The notes below the pieces were generated by a model that saw only the letters and a program-made list of their open reading frames with translations, had not been told where the DNA came from and ran no database searches. From a virus (lineage: Duplodnaviria; Heunggongvirae; Uroviricota; Caudoviricetes), in IMG/VR virus record IMGVR_UViG_2627854098_000004: a stretch of 51,192 nt of DNA; one strand, 5' to 3'. Position 1 is the first letter of the stretch, and every line of letters starts with the position of its first letter. The position numbers were made by a program, and so were the translations under genes. This document shows positions 1,551-44,432 of this stretch, piece by piece.

Positions 1551-1612
1551 TGGCGGAGAGAGGGGGATTTGAACCCCCGGTAGAGTTGCCCCTACTCCGG
1601 TTTTCGAGACCG
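1551..1612 (-). repeat. 3' 62-nt fragment of tRNA-Ser(CGA) (serU-like); candidate prophage attachment-site core, distal (attR-side) copy
   Basis: Reverse complement reads CGGTCTCGAAAACCGGAGTAGGGGCAACTCTACCGGGGGTTCAAATCCCCCTCTCTCCGCCA: anticodon loop (CGA), long variable arm, T-arm and acceptor/CCA of a class II Ser tRNA; the 5' part of the tRNA is absent (sequence diverges at 1613). Confidence 0.7.
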
Positions 1613-2470
1613 ATGATACAGAGTCGAAAAATCAAAGAGTTAAAAAATTTTCTTGGAATAAATGTCTTAAAATCGTGCACGAAAAATCAATAAATTACAT
1701 AACATTAAAGAAGAATATTCCAAGCCTTCATGAGGTCACCACCTGTTTTCTGGTGTCATTCAGACGTGATTTGCCCCAGATTGGGAAAGCAAGCTTTTTT
1801 TTCTCAGCTTATTCCGTTTTGCCTGTGTGTTGAATAATTCCACTGCAGTTATATAAAATCGGTAACGGCTAGAAATCATTCAATACTCGCACTATCGGAA
1901 GTTCACCAGTCAACCGCGGTACGTTCTTGTATACAAGGTGCCGCGGTTTCCTTAATAATTTTTAGCAGTACTGTGTGAATGATGAGCGCCCTAAATCCAT
2001 GCATGATGCGTAGTGCCTGTTGTGCATCTTTCCGCGTCTCTTTTTACTAGACCAAAACCAATGATGCTTGCAATACCATTCCCGCCAGGCTCACAGAACA
2101 AATATCCCTTATCATCGACGCATAAGCGACACTAATCAGCAAAACCTAGGATGTATTGCTCTTGCCGGCACCTCCGGGAAAAATGTTTACTGCGCAATAA
2201 ATGAAAATAGCTCATCAACGTGCCGAGAATTAGCTATGTCTTGTGAGAAAAGAAACATCAATGATGCGTACAGCCGCACGAATACTTCTTATATTTTACT
2301 GTTAAACCGATACTTTTGTATCCTAACGAATACTTGACAAGATTATCTCCATCTTGGTAGATAAACCTCAGAAGGTTTTTGACAGGTGGATTTCTGTTCA
2401 GAAGGTCAATAAAGCTCTTCTCTATCATTAGTCAAATGTACAACATGGCTGTCTAAATAACGGAGTACTC

Positions 2471-3250
2471 ATGAATTTTACGTTTACTGACTCTGGATAC
2501 ACTGAAACAAATAAAAACAATCCCCCAATCATATTCGTTCATGGATTTTTCATGAATAATGAAATGTTCAAATACCAGTTTGACGAACTAAAAGAAAAAC
2601 ATAGAGTTGTTTGCATTAATGTTCGGGGATTCGATGCTCTCTCCGAAAAAATTGAGCCATTCTCGCTCTATGACATCGTTGATGACATTTTAAACGTCGC
2701 AGACTCACTACAACTGGATAAGTTTATTTTAGGTGGAATGTCGATGGGCGGATATATATCATTACGATTTGCCCTGTCACATTCAGAACGTTTGTCAGGG
2801 CTAATCCTTATGGCAACTCAGGCAGAGCAGGATCCGCCAGAAATCGCGTCCAGTTACATGGAGTTATGTAATGGATGGCAAGACCCAATCATAAAGGAAA
2901 ATATAATCAACTCATTATTACCCGTTTTTTTCGGAAATGATATCTCTGAAGCAGAGACATGGAGACAGGTATGGCTAGGCCATAAACCTGAAAATATCAT
3001 AAAGGCCATGAATGCAATGCTGGAGCGCGACGACATTTCAGAAAGAATCCAGATAATCACAATCCCCACGCTGATTATTCATGGTGCCAACGATATGGGG
3101 ATACCATTAGAGAAAGCAATTCAAATGCACAAAATGATTGCGCATTCTAAGCTTGAAGTCATTCCCGACGCAAATCATGCTCTAAATATCACTCATGCAA
3201 AGGAAGTAAATACAGCGATAAAAAACTGGCTGCAAAACAATCATATATAA
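2471..3250 (+). CDS. alpha/beta-fold hydrolase (moron, att-proximal)
   Basis: 259-aa ORF with RBS GGAG upstream; nucleophile elbow GGMSMGG (G-x-S-x-G) and candidate acid and His residues near the C-terminus; AT-rich compared with the lambda-like genes. Confidence 0.75.
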   Translation: MNFTFTDSGYTETNKNNPPIIFVHGFFMNNEMFKYQFDELKEKHRVVCINVRGFDALSEKIEPFSLYDIVDDILNVADSLQLDKFILGGMSMGGYISLRFALSHSERLSGLILMATQAEQDPPEIASSYMELCNGWQDPIIKENIINSLLPVFFGNDISEAETWRQVWLGHKPENIIKAMNAMLERDDISERIQIITIPTLIIHGANDMGIPLEKAIQMHKMIAHSKLEVIPDANHALNITHAKEVNTAIKNWLQNNHI

Positions 3251-3287
3251 AATTAATTATAACACATATTAATTTCTTAATTATATT

Positions 3288-3313
3288 ACGCCCGTAAAAC
3301 TGTAGCGGGCGTA
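3288..3313. terminator. hairpin between convergent genes (possible bidirectional terminator)
   Basis: 8-bp stem TACGCCCG/CGGGCGTA with a 10-nt loop, in the gap between the hydrolase (+) and the membrane-protein gene (-); flanking runs are A/T-rich but not clean U-tracts. Confidence 0.35.
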
Positions 3314-3451
3314 TGTTGTCACTCTGGTAGTGCCAGCCTCTCAATATCAGGTGCAGTTGATGTATCAACACGGTTCAGCAACACCCGATACTTTTTCCAG
3401 GCTTCCAGCAACGGGGTTTCTTCCTCCGTTGCATATACAGCTCACCTTTTT

Positions 3452-9800: not shown

Positions 9801-10527
9801 GAATGCGCCCGCGAAGATGATAATTACGGCTCACCTGCTGGCTGCCGAACTGCTCCGAGTCCACCTGTACGCCGACCAGTGCCGTGTTCGGGTAGCACTG
9901 TTTCACATCGATGATTTCGGTGTATGACGACCAGAGCGTTTTGTTCTGCAACTGGTCTGTGGTGCTGTCCGGCGTCATCCTGCGCATCCGGATATTAAAC
10001 GGGCGCGGCGGCAGGTTATCCACCACCACCGAGGCCAGATACTGCGACGTGGTTTTGCCCTTAATGGTGATGTCTTTTTCCGTCACCCAGCCACCGTTAC
10101 GTTGAATCTGAACCAGCAGGCGGACTTCCGATGGATTCCTGTCCCCCTTTGAGGTGGTTTCCACCAGTGCCTGCACGCCGAAAGTAAAACGCAGACGGTC
10201 AATGTTTGCCGACGTGATGGTCCGGGTGATCGGCGTGTCATATTTCACTTCTGTACCGAGCACCGTCTCGGAGCCGGAGGATTCAAATCCCTCCGGCGGT
10301 GTCTGCTCCTGCTCACCGGCCCGGAACACCACCGTGACGCCGAATATATTGGTATTCCCCTCACTGTCCAGCACCGGCGTACTGTTCAGCAGCACGCTTT
10401 TTAATCCATCCACCGGACCTTCAACCGGCCCTTCGCTGATGGCGTCTATCACGCTCAGCATCTGGGATGATTTCAGGTTGTCCTTCGCTTCGCGCGGGGT
10501 ATGCCCCTTACTGCTGCCTTTACCCAT
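6828..10527 (-). pseudogene. J: tail tip/host-specificity protein J, split by a frameshift in a homopolymer at 8274-8279
   Basis: ORFs 8188..10527 (lambda J-like N-terminal 740 aa) and 6828..8324 (J C-terminal part) overlap; the reading frames join at the plus-strand T6 run 8274-8279 (A6 in the coding sense); removing one base restores [17 protein letters not shown]. Confidence 0.8.
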
Positions 10528-10587: not shown

Positions 10588-11260
10588 TCAGCGACCAATC
10601 ACCACAACCTGACCACCATCCCCTTCGTCTGCCGTGCTGATCTCCTGAGAAACCACGCGTGACCCCACGCGCATTTCACCGTACAGAACCGGCAGAACAT
10701 TGCCCTGGGCAACCATGTTATCCAGTGAGGAGAAATAGGTGTTCTGTTTGCCGTTATCCGTTGTCTGTGTACGGGGAGTTCTGGCTTTCGGTGCCAGCAT
10801 CTGCGCCACACCACCGAGCACCATACTGGCACCGAGAGAAAACAGGATGCCGGTCATACCACCGGCCCCAATGGCTGCCCCCCATGCTGCAAGGGTGGCT
10901 CCGGCGGTAAAGAATGATCCGGCAATGGCGGCAGCCCCCAGGACAATCTGGAATACGCCACCTGACTTGGCCCCGGCGACTCTGGGAACAATATGAATCA
11001 CAGCGCCATCAGGCAGAGTCTCATGTAACTGCGCCGTTAACCCGGACGTGCTGACGTCCCGCCCGGCAATCCGTACCTGATACCAGCCGTCGCTCAGTTT
11101 CTGACGAAACGCCGGGAGCTGTGTGGCCAGCGCCCGAATGGCTTCAGCCCCCGTTTTCACACGAAGGTCGAGTGCGGCGGCCAAATCGTTGTAAATCCCC
11201 GTAAAGGCAGATGCGCGCCATGCCCGGTGACGCCAGAGGGAGTGTGTGCGTCGCTGCCAT
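10588..11260 (-). pseudogene. I: tail tip assembly protein I with a +1 insertion about 29 codons in (near 11172)
   Basis: I-body ORF 10588..11184 (lambda I-like); the I N-terminus MAATHTLPLASPGMARICLYGDLQRFGRR lies in the K frame starting at 11260; gene span is 673 nt against 672 expected. Confidence 0.6.
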
Positions 11261-11902
11261 TTGTCGGTATAACCTCTCTCGTTTGCTCAGTTGTTCAGGA
11301 ATATGGTGCAGCAGCTCGCCATCACCACAGTAAATGGCGGCATGATTCGGCACCGATGAACCAAAACAGCACAGCAGCACATCGCCCGGTTGTGCTGATG
11401 ACAACGGCACCTGATACAGCCCTGTGGCCTCCAGATTATCCAGATAGAGATTCTGGCCGTTACGCCACCAGTCATCCTCACGATAAAAGTCCGGCATCTC
11501 AATCCCCGCCAGATGATAAGCATCCCGGAACAGTGTGTAACAGTCCGTCACACCGTGCTCAAAGCGCCGCCCGGTGAGATGCGGCACACAGCGGAACTTA
11601 TGAATCGTCCCCCGGCAGACCAGCCACCACGGCAAATCACTCTGCACCTGCAGCCGCCGGTCGGCCTCACTCAGCCAGGGCAGACCACCGGGGTGGCTGT
11701 GGACCAGCGCCACAATCTCACCCTGCATTTCTGCCTGCAGCCAGTCTTCCGGCGACATACGGAAATACGCCTCCGGCTCACCGGAGATATTCACGCAGGG
11801 GAAATATCTTTCCCCCTCCGGCGTGCTTACCACGAAGCCGCACGACTCCGCTGGCGCACATCGCCGGGCGTGCGCCAGAATCGCTGATTCTGTCTGTGTC
11901 AT
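11144..11902 (-). CDS. K: tail tip assembly protein K (MPN/JAMM HSHPGG motif plus NlpC/P60-like Cys-His-His); C-terminus altered by frameshift
   Basis: 252-aa ORF starting 5 nt after the L stop; a lambda-type frame would end at 11159-11157; here an extra base near 11271 shifts the C-terminal about 40 residues into the I-start frame. Confidence 0.65.
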   Translation of the reverse strand: MTQTESAILAHARRCAPAESCGFVVSTPEGERYFPCVNISGEPEAYFRMSPEDWLQAEMQGEIVALVHSHPGGLPWLSEADRRLQVQSDLPWWLVCRGTIHKFRCVPHLTGRRFEHGVTDCYTLFRDAYHLAGIEMPDFYREDDWWRNGQNLYLDNLEATGLYQVPLSSAQPGDVLLCCFGSSVPNHAAIYCGDGELLHHIPEQLSKRERLYRQMAATHTLPLASPGMARICLYGDLQRFGRRTRPSCENGG

Positions 11903-11907
11903 GGGAT

Positions 11908-12606
11908 TTACTGCGAAAGTTTGTTAATGGAAAGGAAGCCGCCAAAGTTGCCGACGTTATTGCGGAACTTACAACCGCTCAGGCATTTGCTGCATTTATC
12001 CTTCGTGATATCGGACGTTGGCTGGTCATATTCATCCGCGACAGCCGGACCGCTATAACCGCACTCGTCACCGCGATAGGTCCAGGTGCAGGTGTTGGCC
12101 AGCATGATACGTCCCGGAAAAACAGCGCCATCCGTTTCCGTCGGCGTGGACAGTACAAAGGAGGCACTCACCGCGCTCAGTTCGCTGCACTGCTCAATGC
12201 GCCAGCGGCTGATCACCTCCTGCTCCGGATCGGCGTCACTGTTTCCGTTGACGAAGTTCACCGCATCCAGAAAACGGGCGTAAACCTTACGCCGGACCAC
12301 CGTTCCGCCGACCAGACTCTGCAGATCTTCCGCCATCCCTGTGACCATACCGTACAGGTTAGAAACCGTCAGCGTGGGGCGCGTACTGGTGCCTTTGCCA
12401 TTCAGTTCAAAACCGCTCCCCTGAATGGGATACGGCTGATACTGTCGCCCCTGCCAGGTGACCGGCTCACCTTTTTCGTTCTGCTCATTACAGAAAAAAT
12501 AACGTTCTCCACCGACCTCTGTCAGGTCGATTTCCCAGAGCACCACGCTGGCCGACTGCTCCGCACGGGTGCATTCATTCAGTGTTTCCTGCCGGATATC
12601 CTGCAT
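11908..12606 (-). CDS. L: tail tip assembly protein L
   Basis: 232 aa; near-identical to lambda gpL; ATGA overlap with the M stop. Confidence 0.9.
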   Translation of the reverse strand: MQDIRQETLNECTRAEQSASVVLWEIDLTEVGGERYFFCNEQNEKGEPVTWQGRQYQPYPIQGSGFELNGKGTSTRPTLTVSNLYGMVTGMAEDLQSLVGGTVVRRKVYARFLDAVNFVNGNSDADPEQEVISRWRIEQCSELSAVSASFVLSTPTETDGAVFPGRIMLANTCTWTYRGDECGYSGPAVADEYDQPTSDITKDKCSKCLSGCKFRNNVGNFGGFLSINKLSQ

Positions 12607-12935
12607 CAGTTCACCACCTGTTCAAACTCTGCGCTGAACTCAACACGCAGCATACTGACCCGCGACGACCATTTTGCGCAGGTCACCTTTATCTGCCGCC
12701 ACTCATAAGGCGGCGTCCACAGAAAGGCTTTCCAGCCCCCGTGCTCTTCCAGAAACAACTCCAGTACCGTGGCCTCCTCACGGGGGACAGAAAGCGTCAC
12801 GCTGTACGTTTTCAGGTTGGCATTCAGCCCGGCAGGCGCTCGCTGGGAATAGCCATCACCAAAGCGCACCTTTCTTACAGAAGGGACCGAAGCCACATCC
12901 ATACCGGGTTTCACTTTCCAGCGGAAGGTCTTCAT
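12606..12935 (-). CDS. M: tail tip assembly protein M
   Basis: 109 aa; near-identical to lambda gpM. Confidence 0.9.
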   Translation of the reverse strand: MKTFRWKVKPGMDVASVPSVRKVRFGDGYSQRAPAGLNANLKTYSVTLSVPREEATVLELFLEEHGGWKAFLWTPPYEWRQIKVTCAKWSSRVSMLRVEFSAEFEQVVN

Positions 12936-15496
12936 CGTCCACCTCCGGAGAACAGGCCACCATCACGCATCTGTGTCTGAATTTCATCACGGGCACCCTT
13001 GCGGGCCATGTCATACACTGCTTTCATCATCTGTGGACCTGGCAGACCATTCGTACCGTCGTTCTGAATCACCACGTTGTTGTTCTGCTCAAACCTGATA
13101 CCCTCTGAACGCCGCATTTGCGCCGGACTTCCGGTGCCACCGACATAACCGCCGGTGGCATAGCCGCGCATCAGCCGGTAGAGATTTCCCACGCCAATCC
13201 GGCTGGTTGCCTCCTTCGTGAAGACAAATTCACCACGGTGAACAATCCCCGCTGGCTCATATTTGCCGCCGGTTCCCGTAAATCCTCCGGTTGCAAAATG
13301 GAATTTCGCCGCAGCGGCCTGAATGGCTGTACCGCCTGACGCGGATGCGCCGCCACCAACAGCCCCGCCAATGGCGCTGCCGATACTCCCGACAATCCCC
13401 ACCATTGCCTGCTTAAGCAGAATTTCTGTCATCATGGACAGCACGGAACGGGTGAAGCTGCGCCAGTTCTGCTCACTGCCGGTCAGCATCGCCGCCATAT
13501 TCTGTGCAATACCATCAAAGGTCTGCGTGGCTGCACTTTTAACCTGCGACATACTGTCCGTGGCGCTCTCTTCCCACTCACTCCAGCCGGACTTCAGGCC
13601 TGCCATCCAGTTCCCGCGAAGCTGGTCTTCAGCCGCCCAGGTCTTTTTCTGCTCTGACATGACGTTATTCAGCGCCAGCGGATTATCGCCATACTGTTCC
13701 TTCAGGCGCTGTTCTGTGGCTTCCCGCGCTGCCTGCCGGTCAGTCAGCCCCCGGTTTTTCGCATCAATGGCGGCCCGTTTTGCCCGTTGCTGCTGTGCGA
13801 ATTTATCCGCCTGCTGCGCCAGCGCGTTCAGGCGCTCCTGATACGTAACCTTGTCGCCAAGTGCAGCCAGCTGGCGTTTGTACTCCAGCGTCTCATCTTT
13901 ATGCGCCAGCAGGGATTTCTCCTGTGCAGACAGCTGGCGACGTTGCGCCGCCTCCTCCAGTACCGCGAACTGACTCTCCGCCTTCCACAAATCCCGGCGC
14001 TGCTGGCTGATTTTCTCATTCGCTCCGGCATGCTTCTCCAGCGTCCGGAGTTCTGCCTGAAGCGTCAGCAGGGCAGCATGAGCACTGTCTTCCTGACGAT
14101 CGCCCGCAGACACCTTCACGCCGGACTGTTTCGGCGTTTTTCAGCGTCGCTTCATTAATCCTTTTTCGCCGCCGCCATCAGCGTGTTGTAATCCGCCTGC
14201 AGGATTTTCCCGTCTTTCAGTGCCTTATTCAGTTCTTCCTGACGGGCGGTATATTTCTCCAGCGGCGTCTGCAGCCGTTCGTAAGCCTTCTGCGCCTCTT
14301 CGGTATATTTCAGCCGTGACGCTTCGGTATCGCTCTGCTGCTGCGCATTTTTGTCCTGTTGAGTCTGCTGCTCAGCCTTCTTTCGGGCGGCTTCAAGCGC
14401 AAGACGGGCCTTTTCACGATCATCCCAGTAACGCGCCCGCGCTTCATCGTTAACAAAATAATCATCCTTGCGCAGATTCCAGATGTCGTCTGCTTTCTTA
14501 AACGCAGCCTCTGCCTTAATCAGCATCTCCTGCGCGGTATCAGGACGACCAATATCCAGCACCGCATCCCACATGGATTTGAATGCCCGCGCTGTCCTGT
14601 CTGCCCAGGTCTCCAGCGTGCCCATGTTCTCTTTCAGGCGGCGGGTCTGGTCATCAAACCCTTTCGTCGCGGCCTCGTTCGCCGCCTGCAATGCCCCGGC
14701 CTCTTCGCCGGAACGCTGCAACTGAGCAACATACGCAATCTGCTCCGCCGTCACGTTATGGAACTGGCGCGCCATCGCTGTCAGCCCCGACGTCGGGTCA
14801 GTGGTCAGCTTCCCGAAGGCTTCAGCGACCTTGTCCACCTCCACGCCGGATGCAGAGGAGAAACGCGCCACACTCTGGCTGATGGACGCAATCTGAGCCT
14901 CACCGCTTACCCCCGCCTTAACCAGTGCGCTGAGTGACTCGCTGGTCTGGTTAAACGTCAGCCCTGCCGCCTGCCCGGCTCTGGACAGGACCAGCATGCG
15001 ATCTGCCGTCAGACCCGACTGATTGCCGGAAAGGACCAGCGTTTTGTTGAAATCGGACAGGGTTGAGTTGCCCTGATACCAGGCATACGCCAGCGCACCG
15101 GTCGCCACCGCCAGCGAGGTGGCCCCCACCATCGGCAGGGTGATCGCACCGGCAAGCCCCCTGAACATGGGGATCATCCCGCCGAAGGAGTCCTTAACCT
15201 GACCACCCTGTTGCAGCAGGATCAGCCACGGACTTTGCCCGCCTGCAAGCTGCGTGGCCACGTCGGTGAACTGTGCAGGCAGCATACGCATGGCGGCTTT
15301 ATACTGCCCGACGGAAATCCCCGCTTTCTGTGCAGCCAGCGCCTGTCGGCCTCAGCGACTGTTCAACGACTGCCGCTGTTTTTTTCGCATCACTTTCCGT
15401 ACCGGAAAAATGACGCCTGACTCTGGCCATCTGCTCGTCAAATCTGGCCGCATCCAGACTTAAATCAACGACCAGATCGCCTACCGGTTCAGCCAT
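12932..15496 (-). pseudogene. H: tape measure protein H, broken into three ORFs by three +1 insertions
   Basis: ORFs 15299..15496 (H N-terminus, 65 aa), 14155..15291 (378 aa) and 12932..14119 (395 aa) are colinear with lambda gpH (853 aa); span is 2565 nt against 2562 expected; first and last ORFs share a frame, the middle 1.2 kb is +1. Confidence 0.8.
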
Positions 15497-23402: not shown

Positions 23403-23605
23403 AACCTCACTCCCAGCGGACGACGGCGACACCGGGTTGTCCCCAGTACCGACTCCGCATCATTGATCGCCCGGTTAAGCTCATCCAGAGAAGCCGCCGT
23501 ATATTCAATTCTGCGACCATCTTTCTGGACAGACACCACCCGTTTACCGGTTAATAAATCAAGGCGCGCCTGACGCAGCGCCTGCAGTTCAGCGACTGTA
23601 ACCAT
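23399..23605 (-). CDS. W: head-tail joining protein W
   Basis: 68 aa; lambda gpW-like. Confidence 0.85.
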   Translation of the reverse strand: MVTVAELQALRQARLDLLTGKRVVSVQKDGRRIEYTAASLDELNRAINDAESVLGTTRCRRRPLGVRL

Positions 23606-25517
23606 TCACTCCTCCGGACAGCTTCGCTGCCAGTTCTTTAAGGGTTGGCCGGGTCGTCTCTTCTTCCCGGGATTTTGCCAGTACAGCCAGATCAAGCTGC
23701 CAGCGTTGCACGGACACACGTAATGCCGCGTAGGCATACACCAGGCAGTCCAGCGCTTCGTTACGCCGCTTTTTGTTATCCCACAGCAGACGCATCTTTC
23801 CTTTTTCCCACTTCTCCACAAGCTCTTCCGCGACCAGTTGCTGCGCCTCTGTCTGCGAAAAAATCTCCGGATCATCAGGAAAACGGATAGCATACGACGT
23901 GGCTTCATCCACAGGCGTGGGATCGGCTTTCATACGGGCATAGAGAATTTCTTTTGCGGTGTCCGTCCCCACTTCACACAGATACACGCCCCGCTGATTG
24001 CGGGTTTTTGGCATGGTGATCACCGGCTTGCCATAGACAGATGCGCCTTTTACCGGCAGCACCCGGAAAACACCGTGTTTTTTTGACCTCTGATAAACGA
24101 TTTCGCCATCGATCCCCCCGATGTCCCAGCAGACACGGGAAATGGTCATTTCGGTTCCGTCTGCATGGCGGTATTTTTTGTTGATCGCCGCATCCACACG
24201 TAACAGCGTCTCTTCCTCATCGGGACGCCCCATAATGATGATTTTATCCACCAGAAAGGCTTCCTCTCCCGGAGCCCATCCCCAGACATACATCTCAAAA
24301 CGGTTTCGCTGCGAGTCAATGCCCGCCGTCAGATAAACCACCCGGGCAGGCACCGCCGCCGTGTAACGCACAACCTTATCCATCAGCACCTGGTGATCGA
24401 GTTTTTCGCCCACAGCCTCTTCCCAGGTCTCGCCCAGCGTGGTGTTCACAAAGGTTTTCAGGCCGTTGGGATCTTTCAGTGCATCCAGCCAGTCATAGAC
24501 AATCTGTACCCAGGTGGTGAACGGACTGTACGCCGTCCAGATATGGAAAGTGATGGAGCGCGGCGGCGGAATTTCATCACCCCGGGCGCTGAAAAACATC
24601 AGGCCGTCACGGGTCCACATGCCCGTGTTTTCACAGATCCACCGCCCGTTACTCTGGTCAAGCTCAGACTGATGGATCACACAGCCATGATGCTCACAAA
24701 GGTAGAAAACACTTTCTGGCTTATTCTTCTCCCACTTAAGACCGAAAGGCGAGGCATCATCGCCAAATTTCAGATACTGCTCCTCCCCACAGTGCGGACA
24801 GGGCACATAAAAACGCATGAAGTGTGCCGACTCGTTAGCGGCTTTTTCGATCTGGCAGGAGCCTTTGATTTTAGGCGTCGAGCCGCGAATGGATTTTGGC
24901 CATACAGAGCCCTCAATACGTTTATCCCCCAGCAGGGTTGGCGAACCCTCTTTTTCAACATCCGGTTCGAACGAGGAAAGCTCGTCATAACAGACCACAT
25001 CCACGGATTTTTCACGGTAGTTTTTTGCTGCCGCACCACCCAGACACCAGAACCCCACACCGGAGGAAAAACGCTTCAGGGTGAGCGTATTATCGCGGTG
25101 TTTTCTTCCGAACCATGGAGCCAGCTCCAGCAATGCAGGAACATCCCTTATCGTTGGCTCAACATGAGATTTCATAAAATCTTCAGCAGCTGAGTCCGTG
25201 GGCTGAAAAAGAAGGCTGTTGCGTGATTTATGCTCAATAAAATAAGCCTCCACTCCCAGCAACATCTTTGTATAACCAACACGGGCAGATTTAATCAGGT
25301 TAACCGTGCGAATCAGATCGTTGCCCATACAGTTCATGATGCCAACCTGAAACGGCAGTGTTTCCCATCGCCCCGGGGTATAAGACGACTCTTTAGGAAG
25401 GTAATAATGTTTATTGGCCCACTGAACTGTCGTCAGTGGAACAGGAATAATGAGAGATAAAAGCCCTGTAGCTATCGCACCGGCTGCATTAGCTGCCTTC
25501 TGCGCGTCTGAAATCAT
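23589..25517 (-). CDS. A: terminase large subunit A
   Basis: ORF 23589..25559; likely start ATG 25517 overlapping the end of Nu1 as in lambda; lambda gpA-like throughout. Confidence 0.9.
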
Positions 25518-26037
25518 CGATCCACCCGCCCACGTTTTCACCGGCCTTAGCTGCAACATTGGAGGCTTTCGCGATTTCAGTTTTCACCACATCAAGGTGT
25601 GATGGTGAAATGTCCGGATATTTACGCTGTAATGTCAACGGCACACGCACAAGTATCCCCGAAATCTCCTGTGCCACACGTTGCAGAATGAAGGTAAACA
25701 GTTCAGTTTCCAGCACTACTCCGTCTTCACGGGCATTTTTCAGTTCCTGCGCATCTGCCTGCGCTTTTGTGAGCCGGTAGCGTTCATAGTCAATGGTGCC
25801 GGGTTGTAAATCTGACTCCGCTGCCGCACGCAAATCGTCCAGTTCTTTGCGGAGCTTTTCGTTTTCGATATCAGTTTCCCTCTGCGCATACCACTGAATT
25901 GCCATGGCAGTATCAAATACAGATTCAATGCCCTTACTACCTTTGGAGGCGCAAGGGAGTCCCTGAGACTGCCAGCGTTCAATCGTCCGCGGGTCCACGT
26001 TGAAAATTTCGGCAAGCCTCTTTTTATTAACCTTCAT
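25489..26037 (-). CDS. nu1: terminase small subunit Nu1
   Basis: 182 aa; lambda Nu1-like but with a diverged N-terminal helix-turn-helix. Confidence 0.85.
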
Positions 26038-26063
26038 GAAAACAACCCATTATCAAATACAAG

Positions 26064-26117
26064 GCCCGACATGAAAACGCCAGAAAAAGGCATTTTCGGA
26101 CACTTTCATGTCGGACC
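26064..26117. promoter_or_regulatory. inverted repeat in the cosB remnant (candidate terminase small-subunit binding elements)
   Basis: GGCCCGACATGAAA at 26064-26077 and its near-complement TTTCATGTCGGACC at 26104-26117, 27-106 nt upstream of Nu1. Confidence 0.35.
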
Positions 26118-26219
26118 TTTACGGATGCAATATTAAAAAAACAAAAAGTTATATTCGAGAAGTACCGTAACCGGCTCATTTAAACCGTCTGGTCTGTTTC
26201 CTCCGGCTCTACAAAAATA

Positions 26220-26897
26220 ATGTCCATCATTTTTAATGGACACTATCGTATGAAACACCGGACCTGGATCACTGAAGCTTTACGTCTTCACTTTGAAGAA
26301 CATTTACCCCGGGTTGTGGCCGGGCGTCGCCTGGGTGTACCAAAATCAACAGTTTGTAGTATGTTCGTGCGCTTTCGGAGAGCTGGCCTTTCGTGGCCTT
26401 TGCCCGCAGGCATGTCGGAGCAGGAACTTGATGCCTGCCTTTACGGACAATTTTCCACGGTACCAGTCGTACGTCCTGAAAGCACCGTTATATCCGAAGC
26501 CCCCGTGGTAAAAAAACGTCCCCGGCGGCCCAACTTCCCTTATGAGTTTAAAATCGCCTTAGTGGAGCAGTCACTGCAGCCCGGAGCCTGTGTGGCGCAG
26601 ATCGCCCGGGAAAACGGAATCAACGATAACCTGCTCTTCAACTGGCGCCATCAATACCGGAAAGGTGGCCTGCTGCCTTCCGGAAAAAATATGCCGGCAC
26701 TGCTTCCCGTGACGTTAACGCCGGAGCCGGATAATAAAATCCCGGCCCCCGCACAGGAACCAGAGCAGATAAATACACCGTCCGACAGTCTGTGTTGTGA
26801 GCTGGTTCTGCCGGCCGGAACTCTCAGGCTTAAAGGTAAACTGACGCCGGCGTTATTACAGACACTTATCCGCGAAATAAAAGGGAGCAGCCACTGA
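26220..26897 (+). CDS. IS66-family accessory protein TnpA (start uncertain)
   Basis: ORF has an IS66 orf1-like C-terminal part (PNFPYEFKIALVEQSL...LLFNWRHQYRKG); the N-terminal extension may not be translated. Confidence 0.6.
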   Translation: MSIIFNGHYRMKHRTWITEALRLHFEEHLPRVVAGRRLGVPKSTVCSMFVRFRRAGLSWPLPAGMSEQELDACLYGQFSTVPVVRPESTVISEAPVVKKRPRRPNFPYEFKIALVEQSLQPGACVAQIARENGINDNLLFNWRHQYRKGGLLPSGKNMPALLPVTLTPEPDNKIPAPAQEPEQINTPSDSLCCELVLPAGTLRLKGKLTPALLQTLIREIKGSSH

Positions 26898-27244
26898 TGA
26901 TATCTCTCCCTGCAGGTTCGCGTATCTGGCTGGTTGCAGGTATCACCGATATGCGAAATGGCTTTAACGGCCTGGCATCAAAAGTTCAGAACGTCCTGAA
27001 GGATGACCCGTTCTCCGGACACCTGTTCATCTTCCGCGGACGCCGGGGTGACCAGATAAAAGTGTTGTGGGCTGACAGTGACGGACTGTGCCTCTTCACC
27101 AAACGCCTGGAGCGGGGCCGCTTCGTCTGGCCAGTCACCCGTGACGGCAAGGTGCACCTTACTCCGGCTCAGTTATCCATGCTTCTTGAAGGTATCAACT
27201 GGAAGCACCCGAAACGAACGGAACGCGCTGGAATCCGCATATAA
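26897..27244 (+). CDS. IS66-family TnpB
   Basis: 115 aa; [27 protein letters not shown] signature. Confidence 0.85.
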   Translation: MISLPAGSRIWLVAGITDMRNGFNGLASKVQNVLKDDPFSGHLFIFRGRRGDQIKVLWADSDGLCLFTKRLERGRFVWPVTRDGKVHLTPAQLSMLLEGINWKHPKRTERAGIRI

Positions 27245-27263
27245 CCCGTTGTAAAGTGAGGAT

Positions 27264-28835
27264 ATGGACACCTCACTTGCTCATGAGAACGCCCGCCTGC
27301 GGGCACTGTTGCAGACGCAACAGGACACCATCCGCCAGATGGCTGAATACAACCGCCTGCTCTCACAGCGGGTGGCGGCTTATGCTTCCGAAATCAACCG
27401 GCTGAAGGCGCTGGTTGCGAAACTGCAACGTATGCAGTTCGGTAAAAGCTCAGAAAAACTTCGTGCAAAAACCGAACGGCAGATACAGGAAGCACAGGAG
27501 CGAATCAGCGCACTTCAGGAAGAAATGGCGGAAACGCTGGGTGAGCAATATGACCCGGTACTGCCATCCGCCCTGCGCCAGTCTTCAGCCCGTAAACCGT
27601 TACCGGCCTCACTTCCCCGTGAAACCCGGGTTATCCGGCCGGAAGAGGAATGCTGTCCTGCCTGTGGTGGTGAACTCAGTTCTCTGGGATGTGATGTGTC
27701 AGAGCAACTGGAGCTTATCAGCAGCGCCTTTAAGGTTATCGAAACACAACGTCCGAAACAGGCCTGTTGCCGGTGCGACCATATCGTGCAGGCACCAGTA
27801 CCTTCAAAACCCATTGCACGCAGTTATGCCGGAGCGGGGCTTCTGGCCCATGTTGTCACCGGGAAATATGCAGACCATCTGCCGTTATACCGCCAGTCAG
27901 AAATATACCGTCGTCAGGGAGTGGAGCTGAGCCGTGCCACACTGGGGCGCTGGACAGGTGCTGTTGCTGAACTGCTGGAGCCGCTGTATGACGTCCTGCG
28001 CCAGTATGTGCTGATGCCCGGTAAAGTCCATGCTGATGATATCCCCGTCCCGGTCCAGGAGCCGGGCAGCGGTAAAACCCGGACAGCCCGGCTGTGGGTC
28101 TACGTCCGTGATGACCGTAACGCCGGTTCACAGATGCCCCCGGCGGTCTGGTTCGCGTACAGTCCGGACCGGAAAGGTATCCATCCACAAAATCACCTGG
28201 CCGGTTACAGCGGTGTGCTTCAGGCCGATGCTTACGGTGGTTACCGGGCGTTATACGAATCCGGCAGAATAACGGAAGCCGCGTGTATGGCTCATGCCCG
28301 GAGAAAAATCCACGATGTGCATGCAAGAGCGCCCACCTACATCACCACGGAAGCCCTGCAGCGTATCGGTGAACTGTATGCCATCGAGGCAGAGGTCCGG
28401 GGCTGTTCAGCAGAACAGCGTCTGGCGGCAAGAAAAGCCAGAGCCGCGCCACTGATGCAGTCACTGTATGACTGGATACAGCAACAGATGAAAACACTGT
28501 CGCGTCACTCAGATACGGCAAAAGCGTTCGCATACCTGCTGAAACAGTGGGATGCACTGAACGTGTACTGCAGTAATGGCTGGGTGGAAATCGACAACAA
28601 CATCGCAGAGAACGCCTTACGGGGAGTGGCCGTAGGCCGGAAAAACTGGATGTTCGCGGGTTCCGACAGCGGTGGTGAACATGCGGCGGTGTTGTACTCG
28701 CTGATCGGCACATGCCGTCTGAACAATGTGGAGCCAGAAAAGTGGCTGCGTTACGTCATTGAACATATCCAGGACTGGCCGGCAAACCGGGTACGCGATC
28801 TGTTGCCCTGGAAAGTTGATCTGAGCTCTCAGTAA
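27264..28835 (+). CDS. IS66-family transposase TnpC
   Basis: 523 aa; zinc-ribbon CxxC...CxxC and IS66 transposase core. Confidence 0.85.
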
Positions 28836-28919
28836 ATATCAATACGGTTCTGACGAGTCGCTTACGAAGTACCGACACGATTTTCCCTGAAAAATTTTCA
28901 TAAATAGTGAAAAACCGCG

Positions 28920-28931
28920 AGGTCGCCGCCC
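28920..28931 (-). other. cosN cohesive-end site (lambda-type 12-nt sequence GGGCGGCGACCT on the - strand)
   Basis: The - strand reads GGGGCGGCGACCTCGCGGTTTTTCACTATTTATGAAAATTTT, closely matching the lambda cos region as I recall it; separated from Nu1 by the IS66 element. Confidence 0.75.
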
Positions 28932-29079
28932 CGTAACCTGTTGGATCGACGGAAAGGACCCGAAAACGAGAATAATTATCACTTACAGCAAGAATCGAAT
29001 CTGATCTATTATGGTGCTTGCTATTATGTGCCGGCACAAGTGCGTCGTTTACCGTCATTTCACACAGAGGCATCATCAA

Positions 29080-29331
29080 ATGAAAATCAGAAATATTCTC
29101 GCTATCTCCCTTGCGACATCATCCTTCAGTTGCCTGGCATTTAAATCCTCGCCCAATGTGCTACCAGGACCAACGAATCAACTAACTGCGGTAGAAAGTA
29201 AAATTATCGGACATTTTTATGCCCCACACAGTACATTACCCGGAACAACCATCACAGGGACATGTGACGCCTCCCCCGTCCCGGGATGCACCTGTCCGTT
29301 TTGTACTATGCTGCGTAGCCAAAACCGATAA
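29080..29331 (+). CDS. small secreted Cys-rich protein (83 aa, signal peptide)
   Basis: ATG 29080 with AGAGG upstream; hydrophobic N-terminus MKIRNILAISLATSSFSCLAF; C-terminal CxC...CPFC. Confidence 0.4.
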   Translation: MKIRNILAISLATSSFSCLAFKSSPNVLPGPTNQLTAVESKIIGHFYAPHSTLPGTTITGTCDASPVPGCTCPFCTMLRSQNR

Positions 29332-29694: not shown

Positions 29695-30021
29695 TCAAGG
29701 ACGTGACGGCGTAAAGATAAATTGTCTCTTCACTCCCTGACAGGGGCGATTCTTTTCAAATCGCCATTTCGCCATGGCCTTCACCACTTCATCACGAAAC
29801 AAATTATGAGGCTCTGAGCGGAGAAAAACGATCCGTGTCACAGTCCCATCAGCACCAATATCGAACTTAACCTCAACCAGCCCCTTGATATAATTTGCTG
29901 CAGCATATTCCGGATATCGTGGATACACCGTCACTAATTGCCGGGGCTCATCAGCTTTTTGCTGCGAGCATCCCACTGCCAGGACAGATAACAGAAAAAG
30001 TAGTAAAAGGCGTCTTTTCAT
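29695..30021 (-). CDS. lipoprotein with a TonB C-terminal-like domain (108 aa)
   Basis: Start ATG 30021 with RBS AGGAA; lipobox LAVGC followed by Ser; PRYPEYAAANYIKGLVEVKFDIGADGTVTRIVFLRSEPHNLFRDEVVKAMAKWRF aligns with the E. coli TonB C-terminal domain. Confidence 0.7.
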   Translation of the reverse strand: MKRRLLLLFLLSVLAVGCSQQKADEPRQLVTVYPRYPEYAAANYIKGLVEVKFDIGADGTVTRIVFLRSEPHNLFRDEVVKAMAKWRFEKNRPCQGVKRQFIFTPSRP

Positions 30022-30501: not shown

Positions 30502-30795
30502 ATGAAAAAAATGTTGTTTTCTGCCGCTCTGGCAATGCTTATTACAGGATGTGCTCAACAGACGTTTACTGTTGGAAACAAACCTACAGCAGTAACACCA
30601 AAGGAAACCATCACCCATCATTTCTTCGTTTCGGGAATTGGGCAGAAGAAAACTGTCGATGCAGCAAAAATTTGTGGTGGTGCAGAAAATGTTGTTAAAA
30701 CAGAAACCCAGCAAACATTCGTAAATGGATTGCTCGGTTTTATTACTTTAGGCATTTATACTCCGCTGGAAGCGCGTGTGTATTGCTCACAATAA
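30502..30795 (+). CDS. bor: Bor lipoprotein (serum-resistance family)
   Basis: Start MKKMLFSAALAMLITGCAQQ; near-identical to lambda Bor; opposite strand to the lysis genes as in lambda. Confidence 0.9.
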   Translation: MKKMLFSAALAMLITGCAQQTFTVGNKPTAVTPKETITHHFFVSGIGQKKTVDAAKICGGAENVVKTETQQTFVNGLLGFITLGIYTPLEARVYCSQ

Positions 30796-32585: not shown

Positions 32586-33668
32586 ATGAAAAAATTAACA
32601 GTGGCAATTTCTGCTGTAGCTGCATCAGTACTGATGGCGATGTCTGCTCAGGCAGCTGAAATTTATAATAAAGACAGTAACAAGCTGGATCTATACGGGA
32701 AAGTTAATGCCAAGCACTACTTCTCCTCTAATGATGCAGATGATGGTGATACTACTTATGCCCGTCTTGGCTTCAAAGGTGAAACCCAAATCAACGATCA
32801 ACTGACTGGTTTCGGTCAGTGGGAATATGAATTCAAAGGCAACCGTGCTGAATCTCAAGGTTCTTCCAAAGACAAAACCCGTCTTGCATTTGCAGGCCTG
32901 AAATTTGGTGATTACGGCTCAATCGATTACGGCCGTAACTACGGTGTAGCATACGACATCGGTGCGTGGACTGACGTTCTGCCAGAATTCGGTGGTGATA
33001 CCTGGACCCAAACAGATGTGTTCATGACTGGTCGCACTACTGGTGTTGCAACTTATCGTAACAACGACTTCTTTGGTCTGGTCGATGGCCTGAACTTTGC
33101 TGCTCAGTATCAGGGTAAAAATGACCGCACTGACGTAACTGAAGCCAATGGTGATGGTTTCGGTTTCTCCACTACTTATGAGTATGAAGGATTCGGCGTG
33201 GGTGCAACCTATGCTAAATCAGATCGCACTGACGGTCAGGTCGCCTATGGTAAGAGCAAATTCAATGCCTCCGGCAAAAATGCGGAAGTATGGGCTGCAG
33301 GCCTGAAATATGATGCGAACAATATCTATCTGGCTACCACATATTCTGAAACTCAGAATATGACCGTTTTTGGTAATAACCATATTGCAAACAAAGCACA
33401 AAACTTTGAAGCAGTAGCACAATATCAGTTTGACTTCGGTCTGCGTCCATCTGTTGCTTACCTTCAGTCAAAAGGTAAAGACCTTGGTGTTCATGGTGAC
33501 CGAGACTTAGTCAAGTATGTCGATGTCGGTGCTACTTACTACTTTAATAAAAACATGTCCACTTTTGTTGATTACAAAATCAACTTAATTGACGATAGTA
33601 AGTTTACCAAAACAGCTGGTATTGATACCGACGACATCGTCGCTGTAGGTCTGGTTTATCAGTTCTAA
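32586..33668 (+). CDS. phage-borne general porin (OmpC/OmpF/NmpC-Lc family)
   Basis: ORF 32526..33668; start ATG 32586 with RBS AAGGG; signal peptide ...AMSAQA then AEIYNKD, C-terminal F; between Q and S on the opposite strand, as for nmpC in DLP12. Confidence 0.9.
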
Positions 33669-36877: not shown

Positions 36878-37575
36878 ACACTTGCTCCTTTCAGTCCTAA
36901 CTTAGCTTTAATTTCTGCGATCTTCGCCAGCGCCTGAACACGATTTAGAGGTCTGCCGCCCATGACAGGAAGTTGTTTTACTGGTTCAGGTATCGTCTCA
37001 CCACGGTTAATTCGCGCTGTCATACAGGTCAGTTCATCGGCAGCCTTGCGTCGTAATTCCGCGTCAGTCAGCGCATTGGCCCGCATGTTCTGGTACAGGT
37101 TGGTAACCAGCCAGTAGTGCGCGTTCGATTTCCACGGATAAGACTCTGCATCCGGATACAGGCCTCGCTTCCGGCAATACTCGTAAACCATATCAACCAG
37201 CTCGCTGACGTTTGGCAGTCCGGCGATAACGGATGCTTCTTCCCGGCACCATGCAACAAACTGCCCGGGTGATGGCAGAAATGGTCGATTCTGCCGACGG
37301 GCTACGCGCATTCCTGCGTTAACCTGTTCCATTGTGGTGATCCCGTTTTCCCGGAAAGCCAGAACCCACTGGCGGCGGATTTCGTTCAGTTCGTTCTGGT
37401 CACGGTTAGCCAGACTCGCCGGGAAAGTTGCCAGTAACTGGCTGAACACACCGTTGATGATCTGCGCTACCTGCTGTACCTGCGGCTTTTCGTCGTACTG
37501 TTCCGGCATGTTGTTGGCGATCCGACGCATCTGCTCACGGTCAAAATTAACCATCTGTGCGGCGATGTTTTTCAT
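36874..37575 (-). CDS. P: replication protein P (DnaB loader)
   Basis: 233 aa; near-identical to lambda P; ATGA overlap with the O stop. Confidence 0.9.
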   Translation of the reverse strand: MKNIAAQMVNFDREQMRRIANNMPEQYDEKPQVQQVAQIINGVFSQLLATFPASLANRDQNELNEIRRQWVLAFRENGITTMEQVNAGMRVARRQNRPFLPSPGQFVAWCREEASVIAGLPNVSELVDMVYEYCRKRGLYPDAESYPWKSNAHYWLVTNLYQNMRANALTDAELRRKAADELTCMTARINRGETIPEPVKQLPVMGGRPLNRVQALAKIAEIKAKLGLKGASV

Positions 37576-38470
37576 AAATCCACCCCGTAAATCCAGTCAG
37601 TGTTTGTCAGGTCGAGTTTTGGTTTGCAGGCTGTCACACCTGCCTGTTGCTTGTTACGGTTGATTTCGAGCTGGGTCCACTTGTCGCGGAGTTTGGCCGG
37701 GCTCAGCACGTTACCGGACCAGAAGTTGTCCTGGCATGCCCAGCGGAACAGTACACACATGTCGCGATGGTTACGTCCGTCACGTTCACGCATCAGGCGG
37801 ATATCGTTAGCCCACCCTGCAAAATTCGGTTTTCTGGCTGATGGCGCGATGGTCTTCACCATGTCAAACATCCATTCTGCGGCGGTCAGGTCTTCTGCTG
37901 TCCCCCACTTGCTGCCGCTCTGAATTGCAGCATCCGGTTTCACCACAGAAAGGTCGTTTTCTGGCTGGTCAGAGGATTCGCCAGAATTCTCTGACGAATA
38001 ATCTTTTCTTTTTCTTTTGTAATAGTGTCTTTTGTGTCCCCCTGTTTTGAGGGATAGCAATCCCCCAATTTGAGGGATGTTTTATCCCTCGTTTTAGGGG
38101 ATTTTCCCTCGTTTTGAGGGATACACCATTCTGAGATGTTTTTATTTGGTCCAAACATGCCGCCTTGCTGCTTGATAATATTCATTCTGACGAGTTCTAA
38201 CTTGGCTTCATTGCACCGTTTGACGGGTAACTTTGTAATCTCGCTAAGTTGAGAATCGGTGATTCTGTCCATTGGTTTATTCCATCCATAGGTTTTACGC
38301 AGAATGGCAAGCAGCACTTTAAACTGTCGCTTGGTCAGATCTGCGCCTGAATAAGCCTCAAGCAGCATATTTGATAGTCTGGCGTAACCATCATCGAGAT
38401 CTGCCACATTACGCTCCTGTTTGGCAAAGTTACCTCTGCAGAAGTTGAGTATTTTTGCTGTATTTGTCAT
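37572..38470 (-). pseudogene. O: replication initiator O, split by a 1-nt deletion in the AT-rich ori segment
   Basis: ORFs 37940..38470 (O N-terminus) and 37572..38060 (O C-terminus) overlap; total 899 nt against 900 expected; the frame change maps to the plus-strand T5 run 38009-38013. Confidence 0.75.
38041..38120. repeat. ori iterons (four roughly 19-bp O-binding repeats) inside the O gene
   Basis: On the - strand four tandem copies of TCCCTCAAAACGAGGGA-like repeats, followed by an A/T-rich segment at 37990-38040. Confidence 0.85.
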
Positions 38471-41709: not shown

Positions 41710-41798
41710 ATGTCCAGAAAAACAGAATTTAAAGGCACCGCAGCTTCTCGCCGTAGAGCTCGTCGCGCAAATCTGCAAAGTCAGGAGGCGATCAGCTC
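41710..41798 (+). pseudogene. N: N antiterminator, 5' fragment (codons 1-29), interrupted by IS66
   Basis: ATG 41710 with RBS GGAGGAA; arginine-rich N-terminus MSRKTEFKGTAASRRRARRA; reading frame continues at 44249 after the IS and one copy of the target duplication. Confidence 0.55.
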
Positions 41799-41835
41799 GT
41801 AAGCGTGCAGCAAGAACCGTATTGACGGGGATGTG

Positions 41836-43374
41836 TTATTCAGTCGGCAGTGCTACGCGCCAGGGGAGCAGTTCGCCGACCCGGTTTATCGGCCAGTCGG
41901 CTATGACGTCAAGGACATAGCGGAGGTAGCTTTCTGGCTCCACTCCGTTCAGTTTGCACGTCCCGATCAGGCTGTACAGCAGCGCTCCCCGCTCTCCTCC
42001 ATGATCCGAACCGAAGAACAGGTAGTTTTTGCGGCCCAGACTGACCATCCGCAACGCATTTTCAGCGATGTTATTGTCCGCCTCAGCCCAGCCATCATCT
42101 GCATAGTACGTCAGCGCCGGCCACTGGTTCAGGGCGTATGCGAACGCTTTCGCCAGTTCTGAGTGTCGCGACAGGGTTTTCATCTTTTCACGCAGCCAGC
42201 TTTCCAGGGATTTCAGCAGCGGTTTCGTTTTCAACTGACGTTCGGCAAGGCGCTGCTCCGCCGTCATTCCCCTTATCTCTGCCTCGATGGCGTACAGTTC
42301 GCCGATCCGTTTCAGCGCTTCCTCCGTCAGGGCTGACGGGGTGCGAACGTGCACATCGTGGATTTTACGGCGGGCGTGAGCCCAACAGGCGGCTTCCGTT
42401 ATCCGGCCATCCCGGTACAGCTCGTTGAACCCGGCGTATGCATCCGCCTGCAGTACACCACTGAACCCCGCAAGATGGGTCTGCGGATGGATGCCTTTTC
42501 TGTCCGGGCTGTAAGCGAACCACACCGCCGGCGCCAGCGTTGACCCGGCGTTACGGTCGTCACGAACGTAGGTCCATAACCGCCCGGTCTTCGTTTTCTT
42601 ATTGCCTGGCAACAGCACCGGGACAGGCGTGTCATCAGCATGGAGCTTACCGTCAGTCAGCACATAGCCATGAAGCGCCTCTTCCAGCGGAGACAGCAGC
42701 CGGCAGCATGCATCCACCCAGCCCGACAGCAGTGAACGGCTCAGCTCCACACCTTGCCGGCCGTATATTTCTGACTGGCGATACAGCGGGGTGTGCTCTG
42801 CATACTTCGAGGTCAGCACGCGGGCCAGCAGCCCCGGTCCGGCGATACCCCGCTCGATGGGCCGCGAAGGTGCAGGTGCCTGCACGATGGCATCGCACTG
42901 AGTACAGGCATGTTTTTCCCGTACCGTCCGGATAACCCGGAAGGCGCTACGCATCAACTCCAGCTGTTCGGCGGTATCCTCGCCCAGATAGCTCAGTGAA
43001 CCGCCGCAGTTCGGGCAGCACGGCGCCGCAGGCAACAGTCGCTTTTCGTCACGGGGTAGTGATTCAGGGAACGGCTTACGGGTGCGGGTCTGACGCAACG
43101 GACGCTGTACTGCCGGGTCATACACCCTACCAGTCAGCGTATCGCTCTCTTTCTGAAGCCGGTTCAGATCGGCTTCCATTTGTGCGATACGGCGGGAGAC
43201 TTTTTCGGAACGACTGCCGAAGTTCATCCGGCGGAGTTTATCCAGCTGCGCCTGCAGATGGTCTATTTCGCGCTCCCGGTTGCTCAGCTTTTCCTGCAGG
43301 GCGTGGATCAGCGCTTCCTGTTCGGCCAGGCGCTGTTTCAGCAGGAAGATGTCGTCAGAAGAGATGTCGTTCAT
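41836..43374 (-). CDS. IS66-family transposase TnpC
   Basis: 512 aa; IS66 transposase with zinc-ribbon CxxC motifs. Confidence 0.85.
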
Positions 43375-43423
43375 AAGCCCGTATTTTACCGGGCTTATTC
43401 TGTGACAACCAGGATAAAGAGAT

Positions 43424-43771
43424 TTACAGCATGGTCAGGGAGGTCAGCAGCCGCTTAGGCTGTCGCCAGTCGATACCTTCCAGCAGCATCGCCAGCTGCG
43501 CCTGTGTAAGGAACACTTTGCCATCACGGGCTGACGGCCAGGCGAAGCGCCCACGCTCCAGCCGTTTGGTCAGGAGGCACAGTCCGTCACCGGTGGACCA
43601 CAGCAGTTTAACCTGACTGCCGCTGCGGCCCCGGAAAATGAAAACATGGCCGGACATGGGATCGTCTTTCAGCGCCGTCTGTACTTTCGCAGCCAGGCCG
43701 TTGAAGCCATTTCTCATATCAGTGATACCGGCAACCAGCCAAATTTTGGTCCCGGAAGGTAACGGGATCAT
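43424..43771 (-). CDS. IS66-family TnpB
   Basis: 115 aa; [27 protein letters not shown]. Confidence 0.85.
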
Positions 43772-44169
43772 CGCTTCAGTTCCTGTATCAGCAGAGTCAG
43801 GAGCTTTTCGCTGACATTGCCATTGAAGCGGAGCGTCCCGTGCCGGAACGTTACCTCACAGCTGATACTGAGGGTTTCCGGGTCCTCTGCGAGCGATTCT
43901 GGCTGTTCGGCAGCTGCATCGAGAGTCACAGGAAGTAGCTGGGGGCTCTCTGAAGAAGGTAATAGCAGCTTTCCCTCGCGCCATTGTTGTCGCCATTTGA
44001 ACAACAGATTGGCGTTAATGCCATTTTCAAGAGCAAGTTTTGAGATGGATATCCCGGGTTCACAGGAGGCAGCAACGAGCTGCTGTTTAAATTCGGGAGG
44101 ATAATTAGGGCAGCCTTTTCGCCTGCCGGGAGTCACATTTTTCTGCATATCTGACACTTTGGTTCCCAC
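43768..44169 (-). CDS. IS66-family TnpA
   Basis: 133 aa; ATGA-type overlap with tnpB. Confidence 0.8.
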   Translation of the reverse strand: MGTKVSDMQKNVTPGRRKGCPNYPPEFKQQLVAASCEPGISISKLALENGINANLLFKWRQQWREGKLLLPSSESPQLLPVTLDAAAEQPESLAEDPETLSISCEVTFRHGTLRFNGNVSEKLLTLLIQELKR

Positions 44170-44240
44170 TACTTATTTGGTGGACACCACTTTGTCTAAT
44201 TCGTCAGATTCTGACCAGACGGTTCAGGCTGTACGCTTAC

Positions 44241-44432
44241 ATCAGCTCCGACAAGCTACACAGGCCAACCCCTTCACGAGTGGTCTTGCAATGCAAGCTC
44301 AAACCAGCAATGAGAGCAGAAGTGATAACTCTGACAACGTTGACCAGAAAATATGAAGGTTCAACTTGTCTTCCGAACGTAGCTCTTTACGCGGCAGGCT
44401 ACCGGAAATCAAAACAACTGACGGCGAGATGA
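44241..44432 (+). pseudogene. N: N antiterminator, 3' fragment
   Basis: In-frame continuation of the 41710 ORF once the IS and one target-duplication copy are removed; stop TGA at 44430-44432; reconstructed N is 90 aa. Confidence 0.5.

Follow-up and report, generated by a model that had tools for sequence, protein, structure and literature searches.

The DNA analysed here is a single window of 51,192 nucleotides (IMG/VR virus record IMGVR_UViG_2627854098_000004). It carries a lambdoid, phage-21-like prophage whose integrase adjoins icd, the integration site also used by phage 21. Positions 6000–49000 (43 kb) correspond base for base to the reverse complement of the chromosome of IMT5155 (NZ_CP005930.1), an avian pathogenic E. 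coli (APEC) of type O2:K1:H5 and ST140 that was isolated from chicken and sequenced by 454. In the orientation of the window, the prophage opens with the tail genes and head genes, which are followed by A and Nu1 on the minus strand and by cos. Beyond cos lie a small moron region with a TonB-like gene and iss, the lysis genes Rz/R/S, an ompC-like porin, Q and the nin region, P and O, cII/cro/cI, N, the recombination genes, and finally xis and int. The distance from int to the tail-fibre remnant is about 48 kb, with both of the IS elements described below included. The tail end has a truncated tail-fibre assembly gene, and no icd-derived attR, that is, no repeat of the icd 3′ end, was found in the window or in a 12.1-kb search stretch of which about 9 kb lies past the tail-fibre remnant. 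Measured against an intact, inducible lambdoid prophage with complete regulatory, replication, morphogenesis and lysis genes and both att sites, the prophage falls short, with N split and the tail-fibre gene truncated. The DNA adjoining the tail end belongs to a different mobilisable island.

The terminase large subunit, of the gpA type, is encoded at 23589–25517 on the minus strand. The small subunit, Nu1, is a 182-residue protein of the phage 21 gp1 type, encoded at 25489–26037 on the same strand. Both genes are intact, and the region of the Nu1 ribosome-binding site is kept. In the phage 21 record (OL657228; also M81255 and X02501), cos is annotated with cosN at bp 1–12, the terminase-binding box R3 at 50–65, the IHF site I1 at 74–86, R2 at 107–122, R1 at 150–166 and the Nu1 start at 189. 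Older phage 21 records add I2 between cosN and R3, together with an upstream element on the R4/cosQ side. All of these features are present in the window, in two groups. On the side of Nu1 lie R1 (26061–26076, minus strand, TTTCATGTCGGGCCTT), R2 (26104–26119, plus strand, TTTCATGTCGGACCTT, inverted relative to R3 and R1) and I1 (26139–26151, minus strand, phage 21 bp 74–86). On the far side lie R3 (28867–28882, minus strand, AATCGTGTCGGTACTT), which agrees with phage 21 bp 50–65 at 16 of 16 positions, a spacer (28883–28919, minus strand) identical to phage 21 bp 13–49, and cosN (28920–28931, minus strand), whose 12-bp cohesive-end sequence of the lambda/21 type, GGGCGGCGACCT, occurs once in the window. 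The spacer contains I2, the role of which is taken from PMC4856287. The right-end side of cos, with the R4/cosQ region, covers the 166 bp upstream of cosN (28932–29097, minus strand).

Between the two groups lies an insertion sequence of 2699 bp, at 26167–28865 on the plus strand. Its three reading frames are intact and comprise tnpA (26220–26897, plus strand), an IS66 accessory protein with an HTH_Tnp_1 domain; tnpB (26897–27244, plus strand), an Orf2-like accessory protein that matches TnpB_IS66 with an E-value of 5e-40; and tnpC (27264–28835, plus strand), a DDE transposase of 523 residues that matches DDE_Tnp_IS66 with an E-value of 3e-103 and also contains the zf-IS66, LZ_Tnp_IS66 and IS66 C-terminal domains of Pfam. 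The tnp genes lead away from Nu1 and are thus antisense to the late transcription of the phage. RefSeq labels the encoded proteins ISCro1, under the same accessions as copies in other genomes, and the element is about 99.6–99.9% identical to these RefSeq-labelled copies, which, rather than the ISfinder reference, formed the basis of comparison. The terminal inverted repeats are imperfect, agreeing at 18 of the first 26 positions, and both begin with GTAA(G/C)CG (left end, GTAACCGG...; right end, GTAAGCGA...). Eight further copies at eight loci in other E. coli genomes all measure 2699 bp and carry 8-bp duplications of their own, and all nine open with GTAACCGGCT and close with AGTCGCTTAC. The chromosome of IMT5155 has ISCro1 matches at 14 places. 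By these features the element is an intact, multicopy ISCro1 of the IS66 family and an ordinary member of it. Like ISCro1 as first named in Citrobacter rodentium and common in E. coli, it has the same length, the tnpA-tnpB-tnpC layout, the GTAA ends and the 8-bp duplication; set against the other copies, the element itself shows no differences, and just its insertion site is particular.

The element is flanked by a perfect 8-bp duplication, GAAGTACC, at 26159–26166 and 28866–28873; a third occurrence of this octamer in the window, at 40305, is the only other. Mapped base by base, the duplication corresponds to phage 21 bp 59–66, read on the opposite strand. The right copy belongs to the intact R3, as its distal part, and the left copy duplicates the last 7 bp of that box. 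Removing the IS and one repeat restores an empty site of 994 bp. E. coli O18, PMV-1 and CE10 match it at 100% identity; phage 21 matches it at 99.9%, as do two isolated phages, PhiR57_1 and PhiR63_2, both of which share neighbouring genes with this cos region. The right-end side of cos at 28932–29097 and the rest of the restored site are 99.9% identical to M81255. In all, 291 complete genomes match the restored site over at least 80% of its length; the best of these, such as CFT073 and Nissle 1917, reach 99.9%. Matches to phage records end precisely at 28865/28866. The restored site equals phage 21 through bp 90. Past bp 90, the sole difference is a run of seven rather than eight T residues (an A run at 26134 in the window); otherwise cosN, I2, R3, I1, R2, R1 and Nu1 all have the phage 21 sequence. 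DE17 and VTB96815v carry the longer run, and a 454 run-length error is the probable cause. The insertion was thus a simple transposition that left no other change in a cos region known to work in other phages. The result bears out the preliminary description, all coordinates of which are right and which had recognised a 2699-bp IS66-family element between perfect 8-bp repeats and had proposed an alignment to the uninterrupted cos of a related phage; the element is confirmed by its domains and by the nine copies of equal length, and the alignment yields the identities given above.

We considered whether ISCro1 might favour targets resembling the R3/I1 junction, an idea prompted by many top megablast matches that ran 5–30 bp past the IS ends. 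The nine independent sites, however, have unrelated flanks, and their duplications share no pattern (GAAGTACC, GCATTAGC, GTAAAAAC, GCTTTTTG, TGGCCTTC, GAATGTAC, GAATATCC, CAATGGCG and ACAAGTTC). The megablast extensions are chance similarity, enriched by score ranking. In other prophages, five more independent ISCro1 insertions lay no more than a few kb from cos. No enrichment near cos or the terminase genes is claimed from them, as the flanks of the query favoured such matches and a rough expectation from copy number was of the same order.

The position of the cut determines what remains on either side. Because the staggered cut fell at bp 59–66, at the distal edge of R3, this box is fully preserved on the side of cosN. 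Phage bp 1–66 are identical to phage 21, and both I2 and the spacing between cosN and R3 are unchanged. What is left at cosN is a module of cosQ side, cosN, I2 and R3 rather than a bare cosN. The IS ends 54 bp from cosN, and its left end lies 129 bp from the Nu1 start (26037), in agreement with the roughly 55 bp from a lambda-type cosN and 130 bp of cosB beside Nu1 that had been estimated at the outset. The accompanying claim, that the IS separates cosN from Nu1 and from most terminase-binding sites, is right: it parts cosN from Nu1, from two of the three small-subunit sites (R2 and R1) and from the IHF site I1. R3 stays by cosN. The intact R3 had been missed in the preliminary description, as had a second IS66-family insertion, in N. 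A scan of the whole window found exactly three perfect R boxes, all at the expected places. R3, I1, R2 and R1 are thus each present exactly but are non-contiguous, R3 now lying 2707 bp from I1. In phage 21, R3, I1 and R2 form a contiguous unit; here this unit is broken, and the contiguous run of R boxes and IHF site immediately upstream of Nu1 that marks a cosB of the phage 21 type is no longer found.

We also considered whether the IS end that abuts R3 might by chance stand in for R2 or I1. It contains neither an inverted R-like box nor an IHF consensus, and besides R2 and R1, the R-box core CRTGTCGG occurs within 2.5 kb of R3 at 26411–26418 alone. This single core within the IS lies about 2.45 kb from R3, and the candidate was rejected.

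How cos is used by related terminases is known from laboratory constructs of lambda, 21 and N15, a different configuration from the one described here. Initiation of packaging requires cosN and cosB. In lambda, TerS is thought to require R3 and R2, with R1 accessory; by bending the DNA at I1, IHF sets R3 opposite R2, and a TerS dimer docks across both. Mutations in R3 have the most severe phenotype, termination needs just cosQ and cosN, and processivity requires all three subsites (Feiss laboratory papers). R3 is the critical box, and the spacing of cosN and cosB is likewise critical (PMC4856287, PMC4669245 and PMC9026076). For phage 21 itself, an interaction between terminase and IHF is called essential in the title of Feiss, Frackman and Sippy (1985), as listed in PMC2366019.

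ISCro1 transposed into the cos of a phage-21-like prophage at icd, with an 8-bp cut at bp 59–66, and split cos into two modules. One holds the cosQ side, cosN, I2 and the intact R3; the other, 2707 bp away, holds a 7-bp stub of R3, the IHF site I1, R2, R1 and the terminase genes. This much, with the ends of the element, its duplication and its distribution among genomes, is shown by the sequence, whereas all effects on function are inferred. In a complex cosB of the lambda type, the IHF-bent I1 lets the TerS dimer dock on R3 and R2 and so anchors TerL on cosN. In the split cos, the nucleoprotein structure for this docking would be unable to form, and a severe drop would be expected in packaging initiation, in stable Complex I and in processive packaging. 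Since I1 and R2 have been moved 2.7 kb from R3, packaging initiation is probably severely impaired, and the preliminary claim that cos cleavage and packaging should be abolished or severely impaired is a reasonable one. Termination is probably unaffected, as cleavage at the split cos would need cosQ and cosN alone. With the second IS66-family hit, in N, the prophage would be disabled more than once and immobilised, though it retains the serum-resistance gene iss, and the cos insertion would be one step of ordinary prophage decay. We regard this explanation as a whole, from the split of cos through reduced initiation and retained termination to decay, as likely.

The second insertion bears on how much the cos lesion matters. 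N is split by another IS66-family element, of 2442 bp, at window positions 41799–44240, with the duplication ATCAGCTC. Removing it restores the N reading frame with an arginine-rich motif. A lambdoid prophage that lacks N but has a nin region has no efficient lytic programme. With the antiterminator split in this way, the effect on cos is largely moot, and the cos lesion is not the sole, perhaps not the first, cause of defectiveness. The cos insertion could be functionally irrelevant, a neutral passenger in a prophage already dead by an earlier loss of N, whose non-essential DNA puts up with IS copies. The junction pair of ISCro1 in cosB occurs in 3 of 5426 complete E. coli genomes, namely IMT5155 from chicken, DE17 from duck in China and VTB96815v from chicken in South Africa, and the junctions of the insertion in N occur in the same three of these genomes and in no others. 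This constant association speaks for such a passenger. So do the 14 matches of ISCro1 in the chromosome, the lack of a consensus among the duplications of its copies, and the independent copies in other prophages, which sit in Nu1, where Nu1 and A overlap, or in the moron region. Against it, none of the genomes carries just one of the two insertions, by which the two events could be ordered. For the passenger history, we see the balance as even. It concerns the selective history alone and does not conflict with the mechanistic effect on cos proposed above. On the sequence of the three carriers, both insertions are older than the spread of this avian lineage.

With the split of cos and the impaired initiation as the preferred reading, it may be asked whether the split site could keep a useful activity, being nicked or packaged less efficiently in the manner of a simple, N15-like cosB, or serving as a termination site, when a helper supplies terminase and late functions. 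Several features of the cosN-proximal module speak for such an activity: R3 matches at 16 of 16 positions and lies at its normal distance from cosN, the most severe mutations are those of R3 whereas R1 is accessory, and termination needs cosQ and cosN alone. At its length of about 48 kb, the prophage is also within the head capacity of a lambda-type phage. Phage N15 packages efficiently with an R3-only cosB (PMC4669245). In the titles of their 1994 papers (PMC395595 and PMC395596), Higgins and Becker name cosN, R3 and ATP in the control of end formation and have the cut measured from the R site. With R3 and the spacing surviving here, the N15 precedent and these titles suggest that in vitro nicking guided by R3 alone may survive.

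The comparison with N15 holds in part. The cosN-proximal module here likewise has one R box, in the R3 position. The simple cosB of N15, however, combines its single R3 with an accessory inverted box, rR2, about 200 bp away; for a few hundred bp from R3, the present site contains no inverted R-like box. A higher affinity for R3 is attributed to N15 TerS, whereas the TerS encoded here is of the phage 21 type, and the N15 arrangement is an evolved simplification, whereas this one is the product of a disruption. Further points weigh against a useful residual activity. In the reading of the Feiss laboratory, lambda TerS needs both R3 and R2 because it binds R3 with lower affinity than N15 TerS does; the interaction that the 1985 title calls essential for phage 21 would have to be made with an I1 that is now 2.7 kb from R3, and the IS end beside R3 offers no substitute. 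The junction of R3 and the IS was absent from phage records and from IMG/VR contigs, and no packaged copy is found in phage or virome collections. As three genomes alone carry the junction, this absence is weak evidence. We consider a useful activity of the split cos unlikely.

A stronger form of this idea holds that transposition made a natural minimal cos of the phage 21 type, consisting of cosQ side, cosN, I2 and R3 and uncoupled from I1, R2 and R1, that is possibly still cut. We think this quite improbable. Were the module still cut by a terminase of phage 21 specificity, nature would have supplied a trial of R3 as the sole guide to cleavage or termination in a phage with a complex cosB, and a helper phage could still mobilise the iss-bearing prophage together with its IS cargo.

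An effect on the terminase genes by polarity, through IS terminators on the strand of the late transcript, was rejected, since terminator-like sites there are no commoner than in shuffled sequence. A Q-modified polymerase would in any case read through such terminators.

That the junction is an assembly artefact, an IS copy misplaced in a repeat-rich 454 genome, is exceedingly improbable: although IMT5155 was assembled from 454 reads, ISCro1 is multicopy in it and its record has probable homopolymer errors, both cos junctions, with the 8-bp duplication, recur unchanged in three independent assemblies (IMT5155, DE17 and VTB96815v), two of them from separately sequenced strains of other continents, and a perfect duplication whose excision restores a known sequence is the signature of real transposition.

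Not every lesion in the IMT5155 record is equally credible. In the RefSeq annotation of this strain, J, K, H and O carry frameshifts. We do not count these frameshifts as additional proof of a dead prophage and regard them as unreliable, because the genes are intact in the sister strains DE17 and VTB96815v, the assembly is from 454 data and it shows several one-base differences in run length.

The insertion itself is real and correctly read. It amounts to an ordinary IS insertion into a prophage that is already decaying. It implies no new biology and adds little to annotation; no description of the cos hit in this strain was found in the Creative-Commons literature. Prophages of E. coli O157 Sakai are riddled with IS elements. 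Like other IS-inactivated lambdoid prophages of pathogenic E. coli, this one bears a virulence gene, iss, and appears immobilised by IS elements in regulatory and packaging functions; it differs in that the hit described here struck the non-coding cos, not a gene. It thereby offers a base-resolved case of an IS in a non-coding packaging signal, which gene-based tools for prophage completeness miss: in the sister strains, whose structural genes are all intact, a tool of this kind could rate the prophage as complete despite its broken N and cos. The preserved R3 would make the locus a ready-made substrate for examining the minimal cosB requirements of the phage 21 terminase. For the APEC O2:K1 lineage, the finding would explain why its iss-carrying prophage is fixed in the chromosome.

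The antiterminator gene N of the IMT5155 prophage is interrupted by a second IS66-family element, 2442 bp in length (window 41799-44240; 41791-44248 with its duplications), with a break point 3′ of the arginine-rich motif. This second element shares about 95% identity with copies labelled ISEc8, and the 8-bp duplication ATCAGCTC borders it on both sides. When the 2442 bp were removed in silico, the N reading frame was whole again. The insertion in N and the ISCro1 insertion at cos are common to the same three genomes, those of IMT5155 and its sister strains DE17 and VTB96815v. Independent ISCro1 insertions were found within the packaging region, or close to it, in four other lambdoid prophages, those of WS3294A, EC130, NMBU_W05E18 and 98206. 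One of the four lies at the overlap of the terminase genes Nu1 and A, another around codon 5 in a Nu1 gene of the lambda type, with an associated deletion, and the remaining two in the TonB-like/iss moron region.

The IMT5155 prophage also bears cargo genes around cos and the lysis cassette: iss, whose product is a serum-survival lipoprotein of the bor type (window 30502-30795); a fragment of the TonB family (29695-30021); and, between Q and S, an ompC-like porin gene (32586-33668).

The spacer between the cosB elements I1 and R2 contains a run of seven A residues (window 26128-26134), as do the O18, PMV-1 and CE10 matches, versus eight in phage 21, DE17 and VTB96815v. As read from these sequences, the shorter run could be either a homopolymer error or a true 1-bp shift in R3-R2 phasing. 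According to RefSeq, four genes are frameshifted in IMT5155, namely J (window 6828-10527), K (11157-11902), H (12932-15496) and O (37572-38470); all four are intact in DE17 and VTB96815v. Since several differences consist of one-base changes in run length, and the assembly was made from 454 reads, the frameshifts are probably sequencing errors and not true pseudogenes.

At the tail-side end of the prophage (window 1-3432 region), the tail-fibre assembly gene is truncated. Past this remnant lies unrelated DNA, beginning with an alpha/beta hydrolase and a DUF6387 gene and continuing outside the window with a SMODS-SLATT pair, H-NS, RepL, MobQ, DotA/TraY, PilV and an integrase (NZ_CP005930.1 4150657-4185000). 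An icd-derived attR was not found in the window or in a 12.1-kb stretch, about 9 kb of which lies past the tail-fibre remnant. The prophage may have lost its right end, or another island may lie between that end and attR.

Relative to DE17, the K-L-M-H tail genes carry about 100 substitutions, clustered in window 11137-15350, whereas in the rest of the 43 kb compared the only differences are three one-base indels that alter run length (8274, 26134 and 38008). Judged by this distribution, the cluster looks like a recombination patch, a case of mosaicism in a prophage whose remainder appears clonal.
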